In this document: in pieces, positions 7,128-38,279 of the stretch
Layout: each line of letters begins with the position of its first letter
Position numbering within the stretch: position 1 is the stretch's first letter
NCBI GenBank assembly: GCA_048939765.1
Contig: JBHLPF010000033.1
Coordinates: 1-41,744 of the forward strand
Direction of reading: 5' to 3'
Origin: Promethearchaeota archaeon
GTDB taxonomy: Archaea > Asgardarchaeota > Thorarchaeia > Thorarchaeales > Thorarchaeaceae
Length of the DNA stretch: 41,744 bases
Position numbers and translations under genes: made by a program
The notes under the pieces: generated by a model
Database searches by the model: none
Seen by the model: the letters and a program-made list of their open reading frames with translations, nothing else
What the model was told of the DNA's origin: nothing

Positions 7128-7234
7128 TGTAGTACTGAAAAGATAAGTGTCCTTATGGCGGACAGGAGTTCAATATCCTGAATCTGGAGTCCGTCTGTGA
7201 TGGTTTGAAGAAGTTGCTTGGAAGGGGACTGACC

Positions 7235-7612
7235 TTATTGCTTGATTCTCCCATCCTCAATCTTCTCAAGCGTTAGAAGTGCGTTGATGTAGTCGTCCAT
7301 GGTTTGGGTTCTCTCTTTCAAGGACAGGCTTGAGTCTAGGATCCGTTTCCTCAGCATGCTCAGGTACCTGTTCTCCAACTTCTCAATGAATGTCGAGGAC
7401 CCCATTTTGGTCACCTTGATCCTTGGCTGACTCTGGATATACTCAATCAGGCGGACCCACGTTTCCGCTGTCGTTGGATTAAGTCCAATCCTTTGAAACT
7501 CCGACTTGGGAAATGGTTCTGGCTGAGCTTCAATGAACCTGAATATCGAATGCACGCGCTGTGTAAGGGTTCTGGTCCTTCGCTGCTTTTCATTTCCACT
7601 TTTTCGAGGCAT
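7235..7612 (-). CDS. Hypothetical basic protein, possible winged-helix DNA-binding protein
   Basis: 125 aa, K/R-rich N-terminus; 'FPKSEFQRIGLNPTTAETWVRLI...IKVTKMGSSTFIE' resembles an HTH plus wing. TATA lies about 23 nt upstream (leaderless spacing). Confidence 0.65.
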   Translation of the reverse strand: MPRKSGNEKQRRTRTLTQRVHSIFRFIEAQPEPFPKSEFQRIGLNPTTAETWVRLIEYIQSQPRIKVTKMGSSTFIEKLENRYLSMLRKRILDSSLSLKERTQTMDDYINALLTLEKIEDGRIKQ

Positions 7613-7634
7613 AATACAGTTCTGTATTATTTAG

Positions 7635-7657
7635 TATATAAACATATTCTTTATATA
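7635..7657. promoter_or_regulatory. Back-to-back divergent TATA boxes
   Basis: TATATAAA-catattc-TTTATATA gives a TTTATATA on each strand between divergent genes. Confidence 0.6.
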
Positions 7658-7705
7658 TTGCAAGAATCTCACCTACTTCAGAACTTCATGTGTCGATGAG
7701 CTGCA

Positions 7706-9763
7706 ATGATTGAAGATGCTGTCGGGACCTGGAAGTCTCGTGTACTCGCCATAGCCAAGGGATTCTTCGAGATGCACTTCCCTGAGAGTGCTGAAGACAT
7801 GAGCAACGCCTTCTCAGAGAGATTCACCTCCTTGGTTGAGGCGAATGAAAGGGATGATGCGACTGAAGTGGAAGGACTGCGAAATCTCATTGTTTCCTTC
7901 AGACCTGCGCTGTCTTCTGTCTTGGAACCCTGCGCAGAATTTGATATGCTCATGACCATGATGGTCTATTCCTTCAAAGCGTCCTGGGAAGGAGCTCACC
8001 AAAGAAAGTCAAAGCCTCCGGCTGCAAAGAAAGGGCCAGTTATGCCTGGCAGCGATCAATCAGTGAGCCTCGAGTTCTTCTGTTCAGTCTGTGGGCAGTT
8101 GGTTGATGTGCCTTATGAGAAGAAGATGGAGATTCTTAATTCTGAGGAAGAGGTTGAGCTGCCCACTCACTGTGAGCAGCCAGTGAAGATTAGAATTTCC
8201 CGGACGGAAGAAGAATCCATAGTTGAGGAGGCAGAAAATGAGGAACCAATCGAACCTGTAGAATTACTGATTGGCCATCTCCCAGCAGATAATGTCGAGT
8301 ATATGAAGGTCTTGAGTGTTGGCATCGATATTGGCTCATCAACTTCACATCTCATCTTCTCCAGGCTCACTCTAAAGCGAGAAACCAGCCTCTTCAACAT
8401 AACCAATCGCTTCAACCTAGTAAATCGTGAGATTATCTATGAGAGCTCGATTATCTTTACGCCCCTCGTTAACCGCTATAATATCGATATTGAGAAGGTC
8501 ATCGAATTTTGTGAGGATGAGTACAAAAAGGCTAGAATAACACCTGAGATGGTTGAAACTGGTGCTGTCTTAGTGACCGGAGAGACCGCCAAAAAGCAAA
8601 ATGCGGCTGAGATAGTTCGCCGCTTATCTTCAGAATCCGGGAAGTTCGTTAGTGCTGCTGCAGGACCCAATCTTGAGTCGCTACTAAGTGCTATGGGAAG
8701 TGGAGTTGTTGATCAATCACTCTATACTCAGAAGGTATGTCTTCACGTTGATGTGGGTGGAGGAACTAGCAACTTGGCAATTGCTGCACATGGGCAGGTT
8801 CTCAGCACCTCTTGCATTAATGTTGGAGGTCGCCTGCTTGGGATTGACAAAGACTTCAAGATTTGGAGGATTGACGGACCAGCTCAGTTTGTCATGAATG
8901 AACTCGGAATGAGCTATCAACTTGGAGATACCATTGCAGAAGGCGATGCCAGGACTATTGCTCGGGAGCTTGCAAAAGCGCTGGTCGAAGTAATGCAAGG
9001 TCCAGCAAAGAGCGTCGTTGCCAAAGAGCTGATGATGACTGACGATTTAGACTTCTCAATGCCAATAGATGCCTATTCTTTCTCAGGCGGAGTCGCTGAG
9101 ATATTCTATGGAAGTAACGAAACCTTTGATGACATCGGCACGATGCTTGCAGAAGAAATCAAATCCCTTGTTGAAGAGCTAAGACTGCCCATTGAAGAAC
9201 CTGAGAATAAGATTCGAGCTACGGTCATAGGTGCAGGTGCTTTCTCTCTCTCAGTATCGGGATCAACTACCTTCTTCGATGAGCATATTGAACTCCCTGT
9301 GACAAACATACCCGTTCTCCCAGTCAATCAAGGAAGTCAGGAGTTCACACCGGAAAGGCTAGTTGAGGAAATTCAAAGGTCATTCAGAACATTTGACATG
9401 ACCGAGGGAGAAGACGTGGCCGCCCTCTATTTCAAAGATCTAATTGTTTCAAGGTATTATGTAGGCGACGAGTGGTTAGCGCCGTTTGCGAAGGCAATAG
9501 AAAAAGCCTTGCCCAATTCCGTTTCTGAAAAGAAGCTAATCATATTGATTTTTGGCTATGATGTGGCCAAAAGGTTGGGCATTGCAATTCGTGACGAAAC
9601 CACAATTAAGAGCAACATACTTGTTCTGGATGAATTGCAATTGGAAGCTGGTGACTGGGTCGATATAGGAACTCCTCTGAAATCAACTCAATCATTTCCT
9701 GTTACTGTGAAGAGCCTGGTATTTAACGAGAACAAGGACTATTCAGAGCCAATGAGGGAATAG
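7706..9763 (+). CDS. eutA: EutA-like (ethanolamine ammonia-lyase reactivase family) ASKHA ATPase with ~200-aa N-terminal extension
   Basis: LSVGIDIGSSTSHLIFSRL, IIYES..FTP, TGAVLVTGETAKKQNA, FVSAAAGP.LE, VDVGGGTSN, CINVGGRL, FSGGV, IRATVIGAG, GDWVDIG.P, PVTVKSLVF. Confidence 0.88.
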   Translation: MIEDAVGTWKSRVLAIAKGFFEMHFPESAEDMSNAFSERFTSLVEANERDDATEVEGLRNLIVSFRPALSSVLEPCAEFDMLMTMMVYSFKASWEGAHQRKSKPPAAKKGPVMPGSDQSVSLEFFCSVCGQLVDVPYEKKMEILNSEEEVELPTHCEQPVKIRISRTEEESIVEEAENEEPIEPVELLIGHLPADNVEYMKVLSVGIDIGSSTSHLIFSRLTLKRETSLFNITNRFNLVNREIIYESSIIFTPLVNRYNIDIEKVIEFCEDEYKKARITPEMVETGAVLVTGETAKKQNAAEIVRRLSSESGKFVSAAAGPNLESLLSAMGSGVVDQSLYTQKVCLHVDVGGGTSNLAIAAHGQVLSTSCINVGGRLLGIDKDFKIWRIDGPAQFVMNELGMSYQLGDTIAEGDARTIARELAKALVEVMQGPAKSVVAKELMMTDDLDFSMPIDAYSFSGGVAEIFYGSNETFDDIGTMLAEEIKSLVEELRLPIEEPENKIRATVIGAGAFSLSVSGSTTFFDEHIELPVTNIPVLPVNQGSQEFTPERLVEEIQRSFRTFDMTEGEDVAALYFKDLIVSRYYVGDEWLAPFAKAIEKALPNSVSEKKLIILIFGYDVAKRLGIAIRDETTIKSNILVLDELQLEAGDWVDIGTPLKSTQSFPVTVKSLVFNENKDYSEPMRE

Positions 9764-9766
9764 ATA

Positions 9767-11071
9767 TTGAGTAAGGATAGGACTGATCTGAATGCTGAGG
9801 CCGAGCCTATTCCTTTCACAGCACGTCTCATAGCACTACACCGGGCCATTGAAAGCAAGCGAAAGGATGCCCTCTTCACTGACCCCTTTGCGGAACGTCT
9901 TGCCGGGGATATGTCCGAATACAGAGAAAAGCATAGGCGGACAGCTGCTGCGAGCGATGCTGCCGTAGTGCGAACTTACTTCATAGACCAGACTCTTTTG
10001 GAACCTTGGTGCAAGAAACATATAGAATCGCAGATTGTCATTCTTGGAGCTGGTCTTGACGCCCGTGCTTACCGATTTCTTCCACTCAGAAACAATACTC
10101 ATACAGTCTTCGAGATTGACTTTGAGGTTGTGAATAATTACAAAGCAAGGAAATTGAAGGATGAAACTCCACTATGCATTCTGAGACGCGTTTCCACAGA
10201 CTTAGCTAGAACTGATCTGACTGAGCATTTGTTGAAAAGCGGATATTCCAAAGAAATTCCTACATTCTGGATTCTCGAAGGACTCGTCTATTATCTTCCG
10301 CGAAACATTGTATTGCGCCTTCTTAAAGCACTTGCAGAGTTGAGTGCAGATGATAGTATGCTATTCGCTGATGTTTGCAATCCAGGACTCGCTGAACTAG
10401 ACTACGGGGCGTTTACAAGGCACTTTGAATGGGGTATCGATATGGAAGAAATTCCTGCGCTCTTTTCTTCCTCCGGTTGGGATGTTTCAGCATCATATCT
10501 CGATGACCATGATCATGGACGGGATGTTGGACAGAGGGGTCTGATGCTTGTCCATGGCAAGCGGAAAGACACACTAGAATTTTGGGAGTACACCGATGAA
10601 GAAGCAGTAAAGGCAGTTTCTACTGAATCAGTATCTGATCCCCATTTGCGGGATTTTGCTTTGAAAGCGAGTGCAAAGTCTGTTCCAGACATTGAGGAGA
10701 TTATTCAGCTTACCACTGAAAATCTCGATGCGGGTCTGAAGAAATACATCCAGTTTTTGAGGAATATTGAGTCTGCTGTTAGGAGAATTTCCTCGGCCTT
10801 GAGTGATCCGATATCATTAGGACAAATCTCCCCACGATTGCTAAAGAGCCCACTCTCCACCGGAATCGAATCAGAAGAATGGTCTACAGAAGAAGTGGAA
10901 TCGCACATGATTGGCTATCTTAGAGCTATCATCTCCCTCCTATATTGTGGGATTAAAGGGTTAGAAGGATGGCAATTCTCTGACACACCTGTGCAAAGAG
11001 CGGGTCAGAGTATTCGAAGTGTCAGAGAAATCAGTGACCTCCTGGAATTCATCAAAAGGACTAGTGGATGA
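9767..11071 (+). CDS. SAM-dependent methyltransferase, LCM (leucine carboxyl methyltransferase)/TIGR00027 family, with ~170-aa C-terminal extension
   Basis: TA...A..RA.E, LFTDPFAERLAG, VRTYFID, QIVILGAGLDARAYR, VFEID, WILEGLVYYL. Confidence 0.85.
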   Translation: MSKDRTDLNAEAEPIPFTARLIALHRAIESKRKDALFTDPFAERLAGDMSEYREKHRRTAAASDAAVVRTYFIDQTLLEPWCKKHIESQIVILGAGLDARAYRFLPLRNNTHTVFEIDFEVVNNYKARKLKDETPLCILRRVSTDLARTDLTEHLLKSGYSKEIPTFWILEGLVYYLPRNIVLRLLKALAELSADDSMLFADVCNPGLAELDYGAFTRHFEWGIDMEEIPALFSSSGWDVSASYLDDHDHGRDVGQRGLMLVHGKRKDTLEFWEYTDEEAVKAVSTESVSDPHLRDFALKASAKSVPDIEEIIQLTTENLDAGLKKYIQFLRNIESAVRRISSALSDPISLGQISPRLLKSPLSTGIESEEWSTEEVESHMIGYLRAIISLLYCGIKGLEGWQFSDTPVQRAGQSIRSVREISDLLEFIKRTSG

Positions 11072-12915
11072 AAATGGCTGAAGTTGATGCAAATCGCTTG
11101 AGATGGAAAATCATAGAAACTGTAAGTGATTTCCTCAAAGAGCACTTTGACGTTGAAGCTAAGGAACTAGAAGAGAAGTTCACCCAGCAATATGAATCAT
11201 TGATTCAGCAAAACGAGCCAAGAGAAACCACTGACATCGCTGGCCTTCATCTTCTCATTAAGCAGTTCAGAGCTGCTCTAAGCACCATCCTCGAACCCGG
11301 TGCGAATTTTGACAGACTGATGGGTCTTGTCAGTCCAATTCTCAATTCAGCACTTTCCAGTGCTGAACACCATAAGCTGAAAGAAACCCTGAAGGCTCAG
11401 GAAGCCGCCAAACCTAGACCCGCACCAAAGGGCATTCTGGTTCCGAAATACGACAGCTCCGAGAATCTAGAGCTTCTGAGCGTGGGTATCGATATTGGCT
11501 CCTCGACTTCGCACCTTGTCTTCTCCCGACTTCATCTCAATAGAGAGAGAAGCTTTCTCAATCCCACAAACCGGTTCATGTTAACTGACAGAGAGATTAT
11601 CTACGAGAGTGAAATCATATTTACTCCGCTTCTTGATAGGTTCACAATCGACATTGAATCGATAATCGAATTCTGTGAAGAGGAATACAGGATAGCCGGC
11701 ATAACACCAGAGATGGTGGAATCCGGGGCTGTGATCGTCACCGGTGAGACCGCTAAGAAACAGAATGCGGAGGAGATTGTTCGACGCCTAGCCTCCAAGT
11801 CTGGAAAATTCGTTAGTGCAGCAGCAGGGCCCAATTATGAGAGTGTTCTCGGTGCAATGGGCAGCGGCATTGTCGACCTGTCTCGAGAGAGTAAGCGAAC
11901 TATAATGAACGTGGACATAGGTGGAGGAACCAGCAATATTGCCATAGCCTCCAATGGCGATGTTCTGAGTACAGCTTGCATCAATGTAGGTGGACGTCTG
12001 TTAGGGATAGACAAGGACTTCAGAATCTGGCGAATCGATGAGCCCACTAACTTCCTCATGCAAGAACTTGGCATGGATTACAAGTTGTATGATATCATTT
12101 CCGAGGAAGATGCTAGGCTAATTGCTCGTGAGTATGCAAAGGCACTGATTGAGGTAATGAGAGGTCCTGCAACAAGTCGCATTGCTAAGGAGCTCATGAT
12201 GACTGACGATTTGGGCTTTTCAATCAAGGTTGATGAATACTCCTTCTCAGGCGGCATCGCAGAAATCTACTACGGTGGCGAGGAAACGTTCGATGACATA
12301 GGACATTTCCTTGCTGAGGAACTCAAGACACTGGTTGACGATTTTGGTCTGAAGTTTGTGGAGCCGGCAAACAAAATCAGGGCTACCGTCATAGGTGCCG
12401 GAGCATTCACACTCTCAGTATCAGGATCAACCTGTTATTTTGACAAGAGCATTGAATTTCCAATCACTAATGTTCCTGTGTTGCCAATCAATGTGACAAC
12501 CGAGAACTATAGGCCTGGGAGAGTCGAGGCAGAAGTTGCTCGCGCTTTCACCAAATACGACCTGAAGGAAGGTGAAGAAGTTGTCGCCTTATACTTCAAA
12601 GACTCGCTTTACAGGTCTTACTCATGGCTTCAGGAATTTGTCGGGGCTATTGAAGATTCCCTCCCAAAAACGGTAGCCAACAAGAAGATGGTGATTCTGC
12701 TCTTTCAGAGTGATATTGGCAAAATGGTCGGACTCGCAACCCGTCAAGAGACATCGATCCAGCACAATCTCATTAGTCTTGATGAGTTGAATCTGGAAGA
12801 AGGAGACTGGATTGACATTGGTGCTCCCCTTCACAATGGTACGGTATTTCCAGTTACTGTGAAGAGTCTTGTGTTTAACAAGAGCAAAGAGTATTCCATC
12901 TCAAATCATCTATAG
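11068..12915 (+). CDS. eutA: Second EutA-like ASKHA ATPase with ~135-aa N-terminal extension
   Basis: Same EutA motifs as 7706..9763. ATGA overlap with the methyltransferase stop. Confidence 0.88.
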   Translation: MKMAEVDANRLRWKIIETVSDFLKEHFDVEAKELEEKFTQQYESLIQQNEPRETTDIAGLHLLIKQFRAALSTILEPGANFDRLMGLVSPILNSALSSAEHHKLKETLKAQEAAKPRPAPKGILVPKYDSSENLELLSVGIDIGSSTSHLVFSRLHLNRERSFLNPTNRFMLTDREIIYESEIIFTPLLDRFTIDIESIIEFCEEEYRIAGITPEMVESGAVIVTGETAKKQNAEEIVRRLASKSGKFVSAAAGPNYESVLGAMGSGIVDLSRESKRTIMNVDIGGGTSNIAIASNGDVLSTACINVGGRLLGIDKDFRIWRIDEPTNFLMQELGMDYKLYDIISEEDARLIAREYAKALIEVMRGPATSRIAKELMMTDDLGFSIKVDEYSFSGGIAEIYYGGEETFDDIGHFLAEELKTLVDDFGLKFVEPANKIRATVIGAGAFTLSVSGSTCYFDKSIEFPITNVPVLPINVTTENYRPGRVEAEVARAFTKYDLKEGEEVVALYFKDSLYRSYSWLQEFVGAIEDSLPKTVANKKMVILLFQSDIGKMVGLATRQETSIQHNLISLDELNLEEGDWIDIGAPLHNGTVFPVTVKSLVFNKSKEYSISNHL

Positions 12916-12975: not shown

Positions 12976-13404
12976 TCATTCCGGTATTATTGGGGACTCT
13001 CCATTATAGCCCACGAACAATAGGACGATAAATGGACCAATGATCATAAGATCGAACGCACCAAAGGGTAGAAAGAACCAAACTGCGACTATTGAAACTC
13101 CAGTAATAAAAAGGGCAGTCCAGACTCCCTTTACCTTATTCTGTAGAATCCAATATCCTGACAATAATCGAAGACTTGTGATGAAGGCAAAAATGGGAAT
13201 GAAAATGACTGGCATTGTTTCTATGAGTCTTCCAACCTCAGTGTCAACACTCACCAATAGCATGTAGAGATTGGGAATTACACCTACCGATATTAGACTA
13301 ATAGCAAACGTGTCAATTAGCTCGAATAATCCATAGGCCAGTTGAATATAACCAGCCCAACAAAGCGCCCTGTTATTCTTGATTGATGCGTGAGCCTCGA
13401 AAAT
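12976..13404 (-). CDS. Hypothetical membrane protein, probable non-canonical ATT start
   Basis: Frame stays open 47 codons upstream of the track's ATG 13263 (FEAHASIKNNRALCWAGYIQLAYGLFELIDTFAISLISVGVIPNLY-M). AAGGAGGA SD at 13411-13418 lies 6 nt before ATT 13404; an in-frame TAA bounds the frame at the SD. Confidence 0.65.
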   Translation of the reverse strand: MFEAHASIKNNRALCWAGYIQLAYGLFELIDTFAISLISVGVIPNLYMLLVSVDTEVGRLIETMPVIFIPIFAFITSLRLLSGYWILQNKVKGVWTALFITGVSIVAVWFFLPFGAFDLMIIGPFIVLLFVGYNGESPIIPE

Positions 13405-36395: not shown

Positions 36396-37241
36396 TTAGA
36401 GTTCAGGTGGTCCCTGCTTGACTCGTTTCATAATATCTCTAGGAGTTACTCCCCAATCTATGAGATACTCTAGCCACCAAGTCATTCCTGCTTCAGCGCA
36501 TAGCTGAAGCTTCTCAGAGTCTACTTTCTTATCATCGCCTGTAGTATCACCTGAAACCACAAGGTCATAGTTCTTGAGATTCCCTCGCTCCTTCTCTATG
36601 ATTGAGAATGTCTCTTTATATCCCTCAATGCTCAGCCCATCTTCCCCTTCCGCAAGAGGAAATGCGCCATCATATCGTACTGCTCTCTTGAAAGGCGCTT
36701 TCTTTGGCCAAGTGCCTGCAACCCAGATTGGTATCTTCTTCTGGACCGGTTTTGGGAGAAATGTCACTTCCTTTTGCTGGTAGTACTCTCCCTCAAAAGA
36801 GAATGGTTCACCACTCCAGAGACCTGTAAGGACTTCGAGCCCTTCGTCCAACATCTTTGCTCGAGCTCTTAAATCAGAAGTTTCGCCAAAGTGATCGAAC
36901 TCCTGTGAGGAGCCTCCAAGGCCTACCCCCATGATTAATCGACCGTTTGAGAGATGGTCTAACGATACAGTTTCCCGTGCCAGCTTGGAAGGTCGTCTTC
37001 GCGGAATCGGAGTGACCATTGGGCCTATCTTAATGTTCTCCGTCCTAGCAGCCACAGCAGCCATTACAATCCATGGATCCACAACTCCCATAGTACCTTC
37101 CCAGCATGCCCAGATGTGATCCCATATGAAGAATCCATCCCACCCTGCATCTTCTGCCGCCAATGCAAGGTCCACATGAAAATCTATTCCCTTGCTTCCA
37201 TTTCCATAAAGGAAACAATATGGGTATATTCCATACTTCAT
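36396..37241 (-). CDS. LLM-class flavin-dependent oxidoreductase
   Basis: AEDAGWDGFFIWDH, DPW, PRRRP.KLARE..SLDHLSNGR, IPIWVAG.WP. Start reassigned to ATG 37241 (MKYGIY). Confidence 0.9.
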   Translation of the reverse strand: MKYGIYPYCFLYGNGSKGIDFHVDLALAAEDAGWDGFFIWDHIWACWEGTMGVVDPWIVMAAVAARTENIKIGPMVTPIPRRRPSKLARETVSLDHLSNGRLIMGVGLGGSSQEFDHFGETSDLRARAKMLDEGLEVLTGLWSGEPFSFEGEYYQQKEVTFLPKPVQKKIPIWVAGTWPKKAPFKRAVRYDGAFPLAEGEDGLSIEGYKETFSIIEKERGNLKNYDLVVSGDTTGDDKKVDSEKLQLCAEAGMTWWLEYLIDWGVTPRDIMKRVKQGPPEL

Positions 37242-37406
37242 TCGACGTAGCCTCTGAAAATTGATAGCTATAATCCCTGCTTCACTATTATTTTGCAGTT
37301 CCACTCATTTCCTCCGAGTGAAGATCATCACGTCCTTCTATCAAGGTGTGAGAATAGTGGCAACAATGACTATGAGAATCGTCGTCAGGTCTCAATTATT
37401 ATGATC

Positions 37407-38279
37407 TCAGAAGTCTGTGACAGTGGGAATGATTTCTTCTCCAAACTTCTCAAGCGGGATTATCTCATGTACATTTGGCATGTTGAGAATAACATGGTCA
37501 ATACTCTCATTTGCCAGTCCTTTGCACATTCCAATAACATCCTTTGCTGACATATTCCCCGAGGATAGATTCGCTGTACCCAAGGCTGTACGTTCTATTT
37601 CATCGTATGGTCTTCCAATGGTTTCACAATGTTTCTTCAAGACCTTGAGTTTGTGATTGATCACTTCAAGACCTGAATAAGTGAACAAATTACATGCATC
37701 AGCATATTGAGCCACGAGCCGTAGAGTCTTTTTCTCACCCATTCCTCCTATCAATATCTTAGGATGTGGTTTTGAGAGCGGCTGTGGACTGCTTATAGGT
37801 TCAGATAACTGATGATGTTTGCCGTTGTACGGATCTCGTTTTCCTGACCACATTTGCTTAGCTATTTGTAGGGTTTCTTCTAACATTTCAAATCGGTGCT
37901 GAATTTTCGGAAAAGGCAGTCCCAAGCCTCGTGCTTCTCGTTCATACCAGGCAGCTCCCACACCAAAATACGCTCTCCCACCTGATAACACATCTAAAGT
38001 TGTAACAGTCTTTATCAAGGCACCCGGATGCCTATAAACAACTCCTGTTACTAATGTACCCAACTTTACTTTGCTAGTTAGGGCAGCTATATAGCTTAGG
38101 GTACTATAAGCTTCCAACATTGGCTGAGCAGCATCACCAAACATTTCTAACTGAAAGAAATGATCCATAACCCAAATACTGGAAAATCCTGCCTTTTCAG
38201 CAGTTCTTGCGATTTCGCTCAACGTTGCTCTTATTTCACTAGACCATGTATAGACGGGAATTTGTAGACCTATTTGCAT
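37407..38279 (-). CDS. LLM-class, probably F420-dependent, oxidoreductase (TIGR03560-like)
   Basis: WVMDHFFQ, MLEAY, LVTGVVYRHPG.L.K.VTTLDVLSGGRA, IGG.GEKKTLRLVAQYADACN. Confidence 0.9.
   Translation of the reverse strand: MQIGLQIPVYTWSSEIRATLSEIARTAEKAGFSSIWVMDHFFQLEMFGDAAQPMLEAYSTLSYIAALTSKVKLGTLVTGVVYRHPGALIKTVTTLDVLSGGRAYFGVGAAWYEREARGLGLPFPKIQHRFEMLEETLQIAKQMWSGKRDPYNGKHHQLSEPISSPQPLSKPHPKILIGGMGEKKTLRLVAQYADACNLFTYSGLEVINHKLKVLKKHCETIGRPYDEIERTALGTANLSSGNMSAKDVIGMCKGLANESIDHVILNMPNVHEIIPLEKFGEEIIPTVTDF

Follow-up and report, generated by a model that had tools for sequence, protein, structure and literature searches.

A long EutA-family ATPase locus of Thorarchaeia with a probably captured, accessory methyltransferase

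Introduction

To our knowledge, the only characterised function of the EutA family is cobalamin exchange on ethanolamine lyase, which EutA itself, the reactivating factor of adenosylcobalamin-dependent ethanolamine ammonia-lyase, reportedly performs (Mori et al. 2004). We describe here a locus in which two EutA-family ATPase genes enclose a methyltransferase gene, on contig JBHLPF010000033.1 of a Promethearchaeota archaeon of the class Thorarchaeia. The whole stretch of 41,744 nucleotides (nt) is called the window; it is contig C40 of the 3.37-Mb assembly G000, which is 88.5% complete, and the names given to near-identical homologues of its proteins also point to Thorarchaeota. The three genes are named L1, MT and L2 in their order along the forward strand, and U125 is a divergent gene upstream of L1 for a protein of 125 amino acids (aa). 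An initial annotation had taken the three genes for a candidate ATPase-methylation system, repurposed from EutA and equipped with its own methyltransferase. Our preferred reading, to which we give a probability of about 0.6, is that the conserved machine is the long EutA L1, with L2 as a duplicate kept in some lineages and a captured methyltransferase as an accessory, rather than a three-part ATPase-methylation system.

ATPases of the ASKHA fold (acetate and sugar kinase/Hsc70/actin) are likewise found in the diol/glycerol dehydratase reactivases DdrAB, PduGH and GdrAB, which cycle on a client enzyme, and in the activators RACo and RamA, where an N-terminal metal-binding module and a linker precede the ATPase. 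On the methyltransferase side, LCMT-1, PPM1 and TYW4 are carboxyl methyltransferases, the first two acting on the C-terminus of the phosphatase PP2A and the third on tRNA; we know of no substrate of the mycobacterial relative Rv0731c. In the library searched, no paper treats EutA together with Thorarchaeota, and a search on EutA, ASKHA and reactivases gave, judging by title, bacterial eut work only.

Gene order of the locus and its relatives

L1 (7706-9763, + strand; 685 aa) and L2 (11068-12915, + strand; 615 aa) encode long EutA-family ASKHA ATPases, L2 being a tandem paralogue of L1 (Pfam EutA E 1.5e-130 over L1 residues 201-674 and 9.5e-136 over L2 residues 135-604). Between them lies MT (9767-11071, + strand; 434 aa, TTG start), placed by its Pfam and NCBIfam matches among the S-adenosylmethionine (SAM)-dependent methyltransferases of LCM/TIGR00027 type. 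The description in the initial annotation is accurate in its particulars: both ATPases are intact and carry their motifs, a 3-nt gap and an ATGA overlap join them to the methyltransferase, and each of the three proteins has an extra domain (a helical bundle and a knuckle in L1, a bundle in L2, a helical C-terminal domain in MT).

The L1/MT junction of the window reads TAG-ATA-TTG. Where the close relatives L041 and L130 have an ATG, the window has ATA (9764-9769), so that MT is taken to start at the TTG at 9767, the first usable start; the change possibly down-tunes its translation. The MT/L2 junction, ggATGAaaATG, can be read as an ATGA overlap or as a 2-nt gap if L2 starts at the second ATG, at 11074, which corresponds to the beginning of L2 in SMTZ-45 (MADAN).

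We compared this arrangement with loci of related genomes and metagenome contigs. L1 and L2 lie side by side, with no MT, in SMTZ-45 (11-nt spacer, TAGgcggaatcaagATG), in five same-genus genomes (G002, G009, G013, G014 and G016) and, with spacers of 0-2 nt, in the more divergent metagenome contigs L127, L128 and AbJk2RLx, which makes nine independent loci. L1 occurs without L2 and without MT in at least five more (G004, G005, G007, G015 and CP070761). The trio L1-MT-L2 is restricted to four populations: the window genome, the close populations L041/L042 and L130 (L1 94%, MT 89% and L2 89-90% identical), and one divergent contig, L046, whose MT is 63% identical and whose L2 is 66% identical over its N-terminal half. 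Three-gene adjacency is therefore not conserved. MT separates the two ATPase genes here and in a single further lineage, so the arrangement is a local variant rather than a general ATPase-methylation machine, and a dedicated methyltransferase, which the initial annotation had made a property of the system, is not upheld. That annotation had also considered that the methyltransferase might be a one-off insertion absent in relatives; the absence is largely borne out by the nine loci, while a strict one-off is contradicted by the four populations.

The methyltransferase

MT scores 126.1 bits against PF04072 (LCM; E 1.9e-36, cut-off 22.3) and 156.9 bits against TIGR00027 (residues 18-244, cut-off 93.55). 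Its predicted structure (mean predicted local distance difference test, pLDDT, 89) combines a catalytic domain (9818-10576, + strand) with an all-helical C-terminal domain of residues 292-433 (10640-11065, + strand). The best sequence matches are the mycobacterial TIGR00027 proteins ML2640c and Rv0731c (E 2.6e-12 and 3.4e-12), and Rv0731c is also the best fold match of the catalytic domain (Z 26.9 over 256 residues, 27% identity). LCMT-1 (Z 23.5), PPM1 (22.3) and TYW4 (21.7) follow, well separated from other methyltransferases (at most 16.6); LCMT-1 and its relatives share the Pfam family and fold of MT, although the similarity in sequence to LCMT-1/PPM1 is marginal (E 7e-3). The fold is the class I Rossmann fold, with the glycine-rich SAM motif LGAGLDAR (G94, G96, D98) and the acidic ribose-ligand residues E116/D118 invariant in 63 family members and the family-invariant E171 and G172 retained. 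Since LCMT-1, PPM1 and TYW4 are among the closest folds, our best guess for the chemistry is carboxyl methylation; a protein substrate would be suggested by analogy only.

What sets the Asgard family apart from ML2640c and Rv0731c is a conserved helical C-terminal domain of about 140 residues. This domain, with the motifs ISPRLL..PL and EAHIVGYLKAIL, recurs across Asgard members (e.g. P0128-P0243). The family (LCM domain plus helical C-domain, 420-460 aa) has members labelled Thor-, Hod-, Heimdall-, Loki- and Hermodarchaeota. Among 87 Thorarchaeia genomes it was found in 27, every copy other than that of the window being at most 51% identical to MT, and it was found in only two of the 16 other same-genus genomes; in the window genome MT is the sole copy.

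Most of the family stands apart from EutA. No stand-alone copy has a EutA gene within 1.5 kb, and CP070761, a complete genome, has its MT (at 0.61 Mb) 0.45 Mb away from its L1 (at 0.17 Mb). No gene family recurs beside the stand-alone copies (at most four of 19 loci), beyond near-identical contigs. The embedded clade comprises four clusters only in 5.8 billion proteins. A metagenome search for further embedded copies found no relative with a single-protein query, and with an alignment query the matches listed were only distant MTs, at most 57% identical.

Purifying selection on MT is evident from ratios of nonsynonymous to synonymous substitution (dN/dS) of 0.21 in the comparison with L041 and 0.16 in that with L046; L1 and L2 give 0.06-0.15. 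It points to a protein that is functional and co-expressed wherever MT is present.

Age of the insertion and the case for a functional unit

Several observations weigh against a simple capture. MT is placed exactly in the operon, with a 0-3 nt gap upstream and a 4-8 nt overlap downstream, and in prokaryotes operon membership often reflects shared function. It has persisted in this position in two lineages with MTs only 63% identical to each other, and it is under purifying selection. The embedded MTs form one clade on a long stem. Between the window and L046, dN is 0.25 for MT and practically the same, 0.24, for the neighbouring half of L2. Taken together, the placement, retention, selection, clade and matching dN fit a long-standing functional association in a sub-lineage.

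The equal dN of MT and the L2 half is also what one would expect if MT had entered long ago and then been lost several times. In the L2 tree one MT-bearing locus, L046, branches at the base and the others (window, L041) belong to the crown, so that the presence of MT maps as two changes. Spacer-like sequence is seen on both sides of MT in L046 (gcgaatcag on the left, gattcaagATG on the right), weak evidence that such flanks could permit precise deletion. The history is either one insertion with four or more losses or movement by recombination, and MT is accessory under either.

The trio could nevertheless be a real functional unit in this lineage, the ATPases remodelling a client and MT methylating a carboxyl of that client or of the ATPases themselves. 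Translational coupling of the three genes speaks for this, as do retention of the trio in four populations (one at 63% MT identity), purifying selection on MT and the kinship of its fold with carboxyl methyltransferases of which two kinds, LCMT-1/PPM1 and TYW4, act on macromolecules. L1 has moreover gained a C-terminal tail of four or five residues in the MT-bearing loci. Yet most L1-L2 pairs and all L1-only loci do without an adjacent MT, the family is scarce among the other same-genus genomes, and MT does not differ in domain layout from its stand-alone relatives and carries no adaptor specific to EutA. The L2 tail with its C-terminal Leu, for its part, is absent from L130, which does bear MT. 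We regard such a unit as rather unlikely, and give a lineage-restricted functional link its share of probability because the trio recurs (MT 63%, L2 66%) while MT is under purifying selection.

The tails themselves can be traced. Past the usual ...EYS, L1 of the MT-bearing loci ends in EPMRE (window 9746-9763, and L130), EPMGE (L041) or GANQ (L046). These endings arose by read-through into the old L1-L2 spacer. L2 of the window ends in ISNHL (12895-12915), which is shared with L041 and absent in L130. The C-terminal Leu of L2 was considered as an LCMT-like substrate and rejected as a shared feature because L2 of the MT-bearing L130 ends in ...SLVFS.

The long EutA-type ATPases

The conserved unit is L1, with its four-helix N-domain, CxxC...HC knuckle and EutA core, beside U125 and a palindrome. 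In L1 the N-domain is encoded at 7712-8011 and the knuckle at 8066-8200, followed by an acidic linker and the EutA core (8306-9727, all + strand). L1 and L2 match the Pfam EutA model PF06277 along its full length (positions 2-475 of 475), scoring 436.7 and 453.8 bits where the gathering cut-off is 27. Like EutA of Escherichia coli and Salmonella, both have the ASKHA fold and intact phosphate-1, phosphate-2 and adenosine motifs (DIGSSTS, D[VI]GGGT and SGG), which are invariant among homologues. An alignment of 18 L1 homologues shows invariant ATPase residues (D208/G210/S211/S212/T213, D349/G351/G352/G353 and G509/A510/G511), an invariant GPxxPG linker and invariant knuckle residues C126, C129, P153 and H155, position 156 being C or H.

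L1 and L2 differ from EutA by a private N-terminal domain, to which L1 adds the metal knuckle. In the AlphaFold2 (AF2) model of L1 (mean pLDDT 71) the four-helix bundle of residues 3-102 is predicted at a pLDDT of about 90, and a small ribbon at residues 121-165, the knuckle region, precedes the ASKHA core. Fold searches return ASKHA proteins. DdrA (2d0o) is among them with Z 7.3 over 142 residues, a match no better than those of PPX/GppA, MreB, ParM and PilM (Z 7-9.7), and unlike DdrAB the L1 system has no beta subunit. For the N-domain, a search with whole L1 gave only generic helical matches (Z 7-8, within the common range), and residues 509-672 gave middling matches of the same range (Z 7-8). 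A protein-atlas query with L1 residues 1-195 gave nothing usable.

Full-length L1 homologues fall into more than 100 clusters at 90% identity and are 56-94% identical to L1; the named ones are nearly all from Thorarchaeota. L1 residues 1-195 found 30 matches among 1.84 billion representative proteins, and the scanned matches that extend further (three full-length proteins and two contig-end fragments) all enter a EutA core. The long-EutA type appears nearly confined to Asgard archaea, mostly Thorarchaeota. Apparent internal stops in the EutA genes of relatives, considered as in-frame TAG/pyrrolysine codons, turned out to be the ordinary stop codons of these genes, lying where the alignments end.

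The tandem paralogue L2 is optional, being kept only in a subset of lineages. Its core is 62% identical to that of L1 and its first ~125 residues 32%, and it has the same four-helix bundle (11068-11367) and EutA core (11470-12879, both + strand) but no knuckle. Its ATPase residues D142/G144-T147, D283/G285-T288 and G443-G445 are invariant among 13 homologues. L2-type clusters number about 20 in the 5.8 billion proteins, compared with more than 100 for L1. In all loci read, L2 lies immediately downstream of L1 or of MT, and in trees the L2 sequences group apart from those of L1, splitting off close to the base of the latter.

U125 and the divergent promoter

U125 (7235-7612, - strand) encodes a basic protein with no match in Pfam and adjoins L1 in every related locus that has upstream DNA. 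The pairing extends to a different family of the phylum, where U125 is 46% identical. Protein-atlas neighbours of U125 include clusters of winged helix-turn-helix regulators, at scores of only 0.83-0.86 that make them a lead, and U125 is probably a small winged-helix local regulator.

The 93-nt region between U125 and L1 (7613-7705) begins with the palindrome AATACAGTTCTGTATT at 7613-7628, which abuts the U125 start, followed by two TATA-like boxes. The element CAT-AATACA-N4-TGTATT together with the two boxes, TATATAAACATAT and CTTTATAT, is kept in 10 of 11 loci, and the remainder of the spacer diverges. From this sequence pattern the palindrome is a likely candidate operator for U125. It occurs twice in the 3.37-Mb genome; the other copy, at C16:23887, is treated as chance because it lies inside coding DNA and ~0.2 occurrences would be expected (our estimate, 3.4 Mb / 4^12).

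The two sides of the promoter have different histories. U125 of the window is 98% identical to that of SMTZ-45 (synonymous divergence, dS, 0.28) and 83% to that of L041 (dS 1.16). L1 shows the reverse, being 87% identical to SMTZ-45 (dS 0.96) and 94% to L041 (dS 0.21), so that dS changes four- to five-fold across the promoter (window 7235-7705 versus 7706-9763). The mismatch indicates recombination at the cassette edge, with a breakpoint in the divergent promoter.

The missing lyase and the client

Against the NCBIfam EutA equivalog models (NF007991-NF007994) the best scores are 376 bits for L1 and 393 for L2, far below all four cut-offs (at least 598); the lowest of these is the one most nearly approached, and the other three are missed by more. 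By these scores L1 and L2 belong to the Pfam EutA family and are not EutA proper. The locus differs from EutA in its setting too, having a dedicated divergent small gene and palindrome.

Nor was the EutA client found. EutB (PF06751) had no match in the window's own genome (88.5% complete) or in any of the 87 Thorarchaeia genomes, while an E. coli positive control gave a match; EutC was not searched separately. Of the 24 genomes sampled from the taxonomic family, 21 nonetheless have EutA-family genes, which supports the earlier proposal that these proteins are repurposed and are not reactivases of ethanolamine ammonia-lyase. In the window, no eut, microcompartment or cobalamin family matched any of the 33 larger open reading frames (ORFs), as had first been noted, with a few smaller ORFs outside the scan. 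A search for the dehydratase clients of DdrAB and its relatives found none in the genome, but control genomes gave no match either.

L1 and L2 might instead reactivate or activate another corrinoid enzyme encoded elsewhere, such as a methylmalonyl-CoA-mutase-like isomerase or an MtaC-like protein. The sole characterised task of the family involves cobalamin, B12-binding domains occur in 11 proteins of the genome, which also carries two MM_CoA_mutase genes, and the domain logic of L1 recalls that of RACo and RamA. Those activators belong to a different ASKHA family (PF14574), however, and the L1 knuckle, with just four ligands (C, C, H, C/H), is not a ferredoxin-type Fe-S domain. The corrinoid proteins also appear to be provided for: on C2 the MeaB gene separates a mutase gene from that of its B12 subunit, and the genome's own RACo/RamA homologue adjoins a corrinoid protein on C21. 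No B12-binding protein is encoded on the window's contig, and no corrinoid family was seen beside L1 in the related loci read. A corrinoid client is accordingly improbable in our estimate.

L1 and L2 might also use ATP to fill or refresh the metal centre of a small cupin, as suggested by a conserved 98-aa Cupin_2 monocupin, which adjoins L1 or L2 in L023, L027, L030 and L128 and is found no more than ~4 kb away in L043 and L045. Besides this cupin, luciferase-like oxidoreductases and a GNAT-OB protein are candidate clients. The chance of a role on the cupin is similarly slim, as its gene is convergent rather than operonic, the window genome (88.5% complete) has no cupin homologue by tblastn (E<=1e-4), and L041, L022 and the window (12976-13263, - strand; probably longer, as in L041) carry a small membrane protein at that position.

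Neighbouring and related genes

The genome has a third EutA gene, of canonical length (484 aa; G000:C69:48025-49479, L004:10026-11480), likewise with no eutBC nearby. It is divergently paired with a nitroreductase-family gene (L004:9392-9961). A nitroreductase adjoins the orthologue in six of eight related genomes, and in two of these an ACT-domain gene comes next.

Close relatives differ in gene content around L1, a neighbourhood in which methyltransferases (class I, PEMT/ICMT) abound. One gene found upstream of U125 in relatives (L041:6733-7515, L043:3832-4614), for a class I methyltransferase of 260 aa, is missing from window 7128-7234; in L041 it lies directly between a GT87-like gene and U125, and in SMTZ-45 it is further upstream, with extra genes. 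The window also has two adjacent luciferase-like monooxygenase genes (36396-38279). Genes of this type lie beside U125 or within ~2.6 kb of it in L127 and L045, so the family travels loosely with the L1 neighbourhood.

Discussion

In the preferred reading, that of a conserved long-EutA machine with a captured methyltransferase, L1 would be transcribed from a compact divergent promoter shared with U125, with the palindrome as operator. L2 would go back to an early tandem duplication, after which it lost the knuckle and was retained only in some lineages. By analogy with EutA, both proteins are most likely ATP-driven remodelling or reactivase-like factors, their ATPase activity being predicted, and their client would be neither ethanolamine ammonia-lyase nor a protein encoded next door. 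MT would have come from the stand-alone Asgard-wide family and been captured into the short L1-L2 spacer in a small sub-lineage, where it would now share the transcript and the regulator of the ATPases and be coupled to them in translation. The benefit of capture was most likely co-regulation and not a physical or enzyme-substrate partnership with L1 and L2.

In eukaryotic PP2A biogenesis the ATP-dependent activator PTPA and LCMT-1 act in sequence, and a counterpart can be imagined in which hetero-oligomeric L1/L2 remodels or metal-loads a client that MT then carboxyl-methylates, with stand-alone MTs acting in trans; we rate this analogy a long shot.

The database label 'ethanolamine ammonia-lyase reactivating factor EutA' is misleading for these proteins because no searched genome of the class has that lyase. 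For MT, the locus is a caution that tight operon packing in one genome can reflect recent capture and not a conserved system, and the Asgard-wide LCM-type family with its helical C-domain is uncharacterised in its own right. The long-EutA type, with its private N-domain, knuckle, probable regulator and operator of its own, and optional paralogue, is an undescribed branch of the EutA family, and identifying the client of L1 and L2 would broaden the known roles of this family of ATPases.

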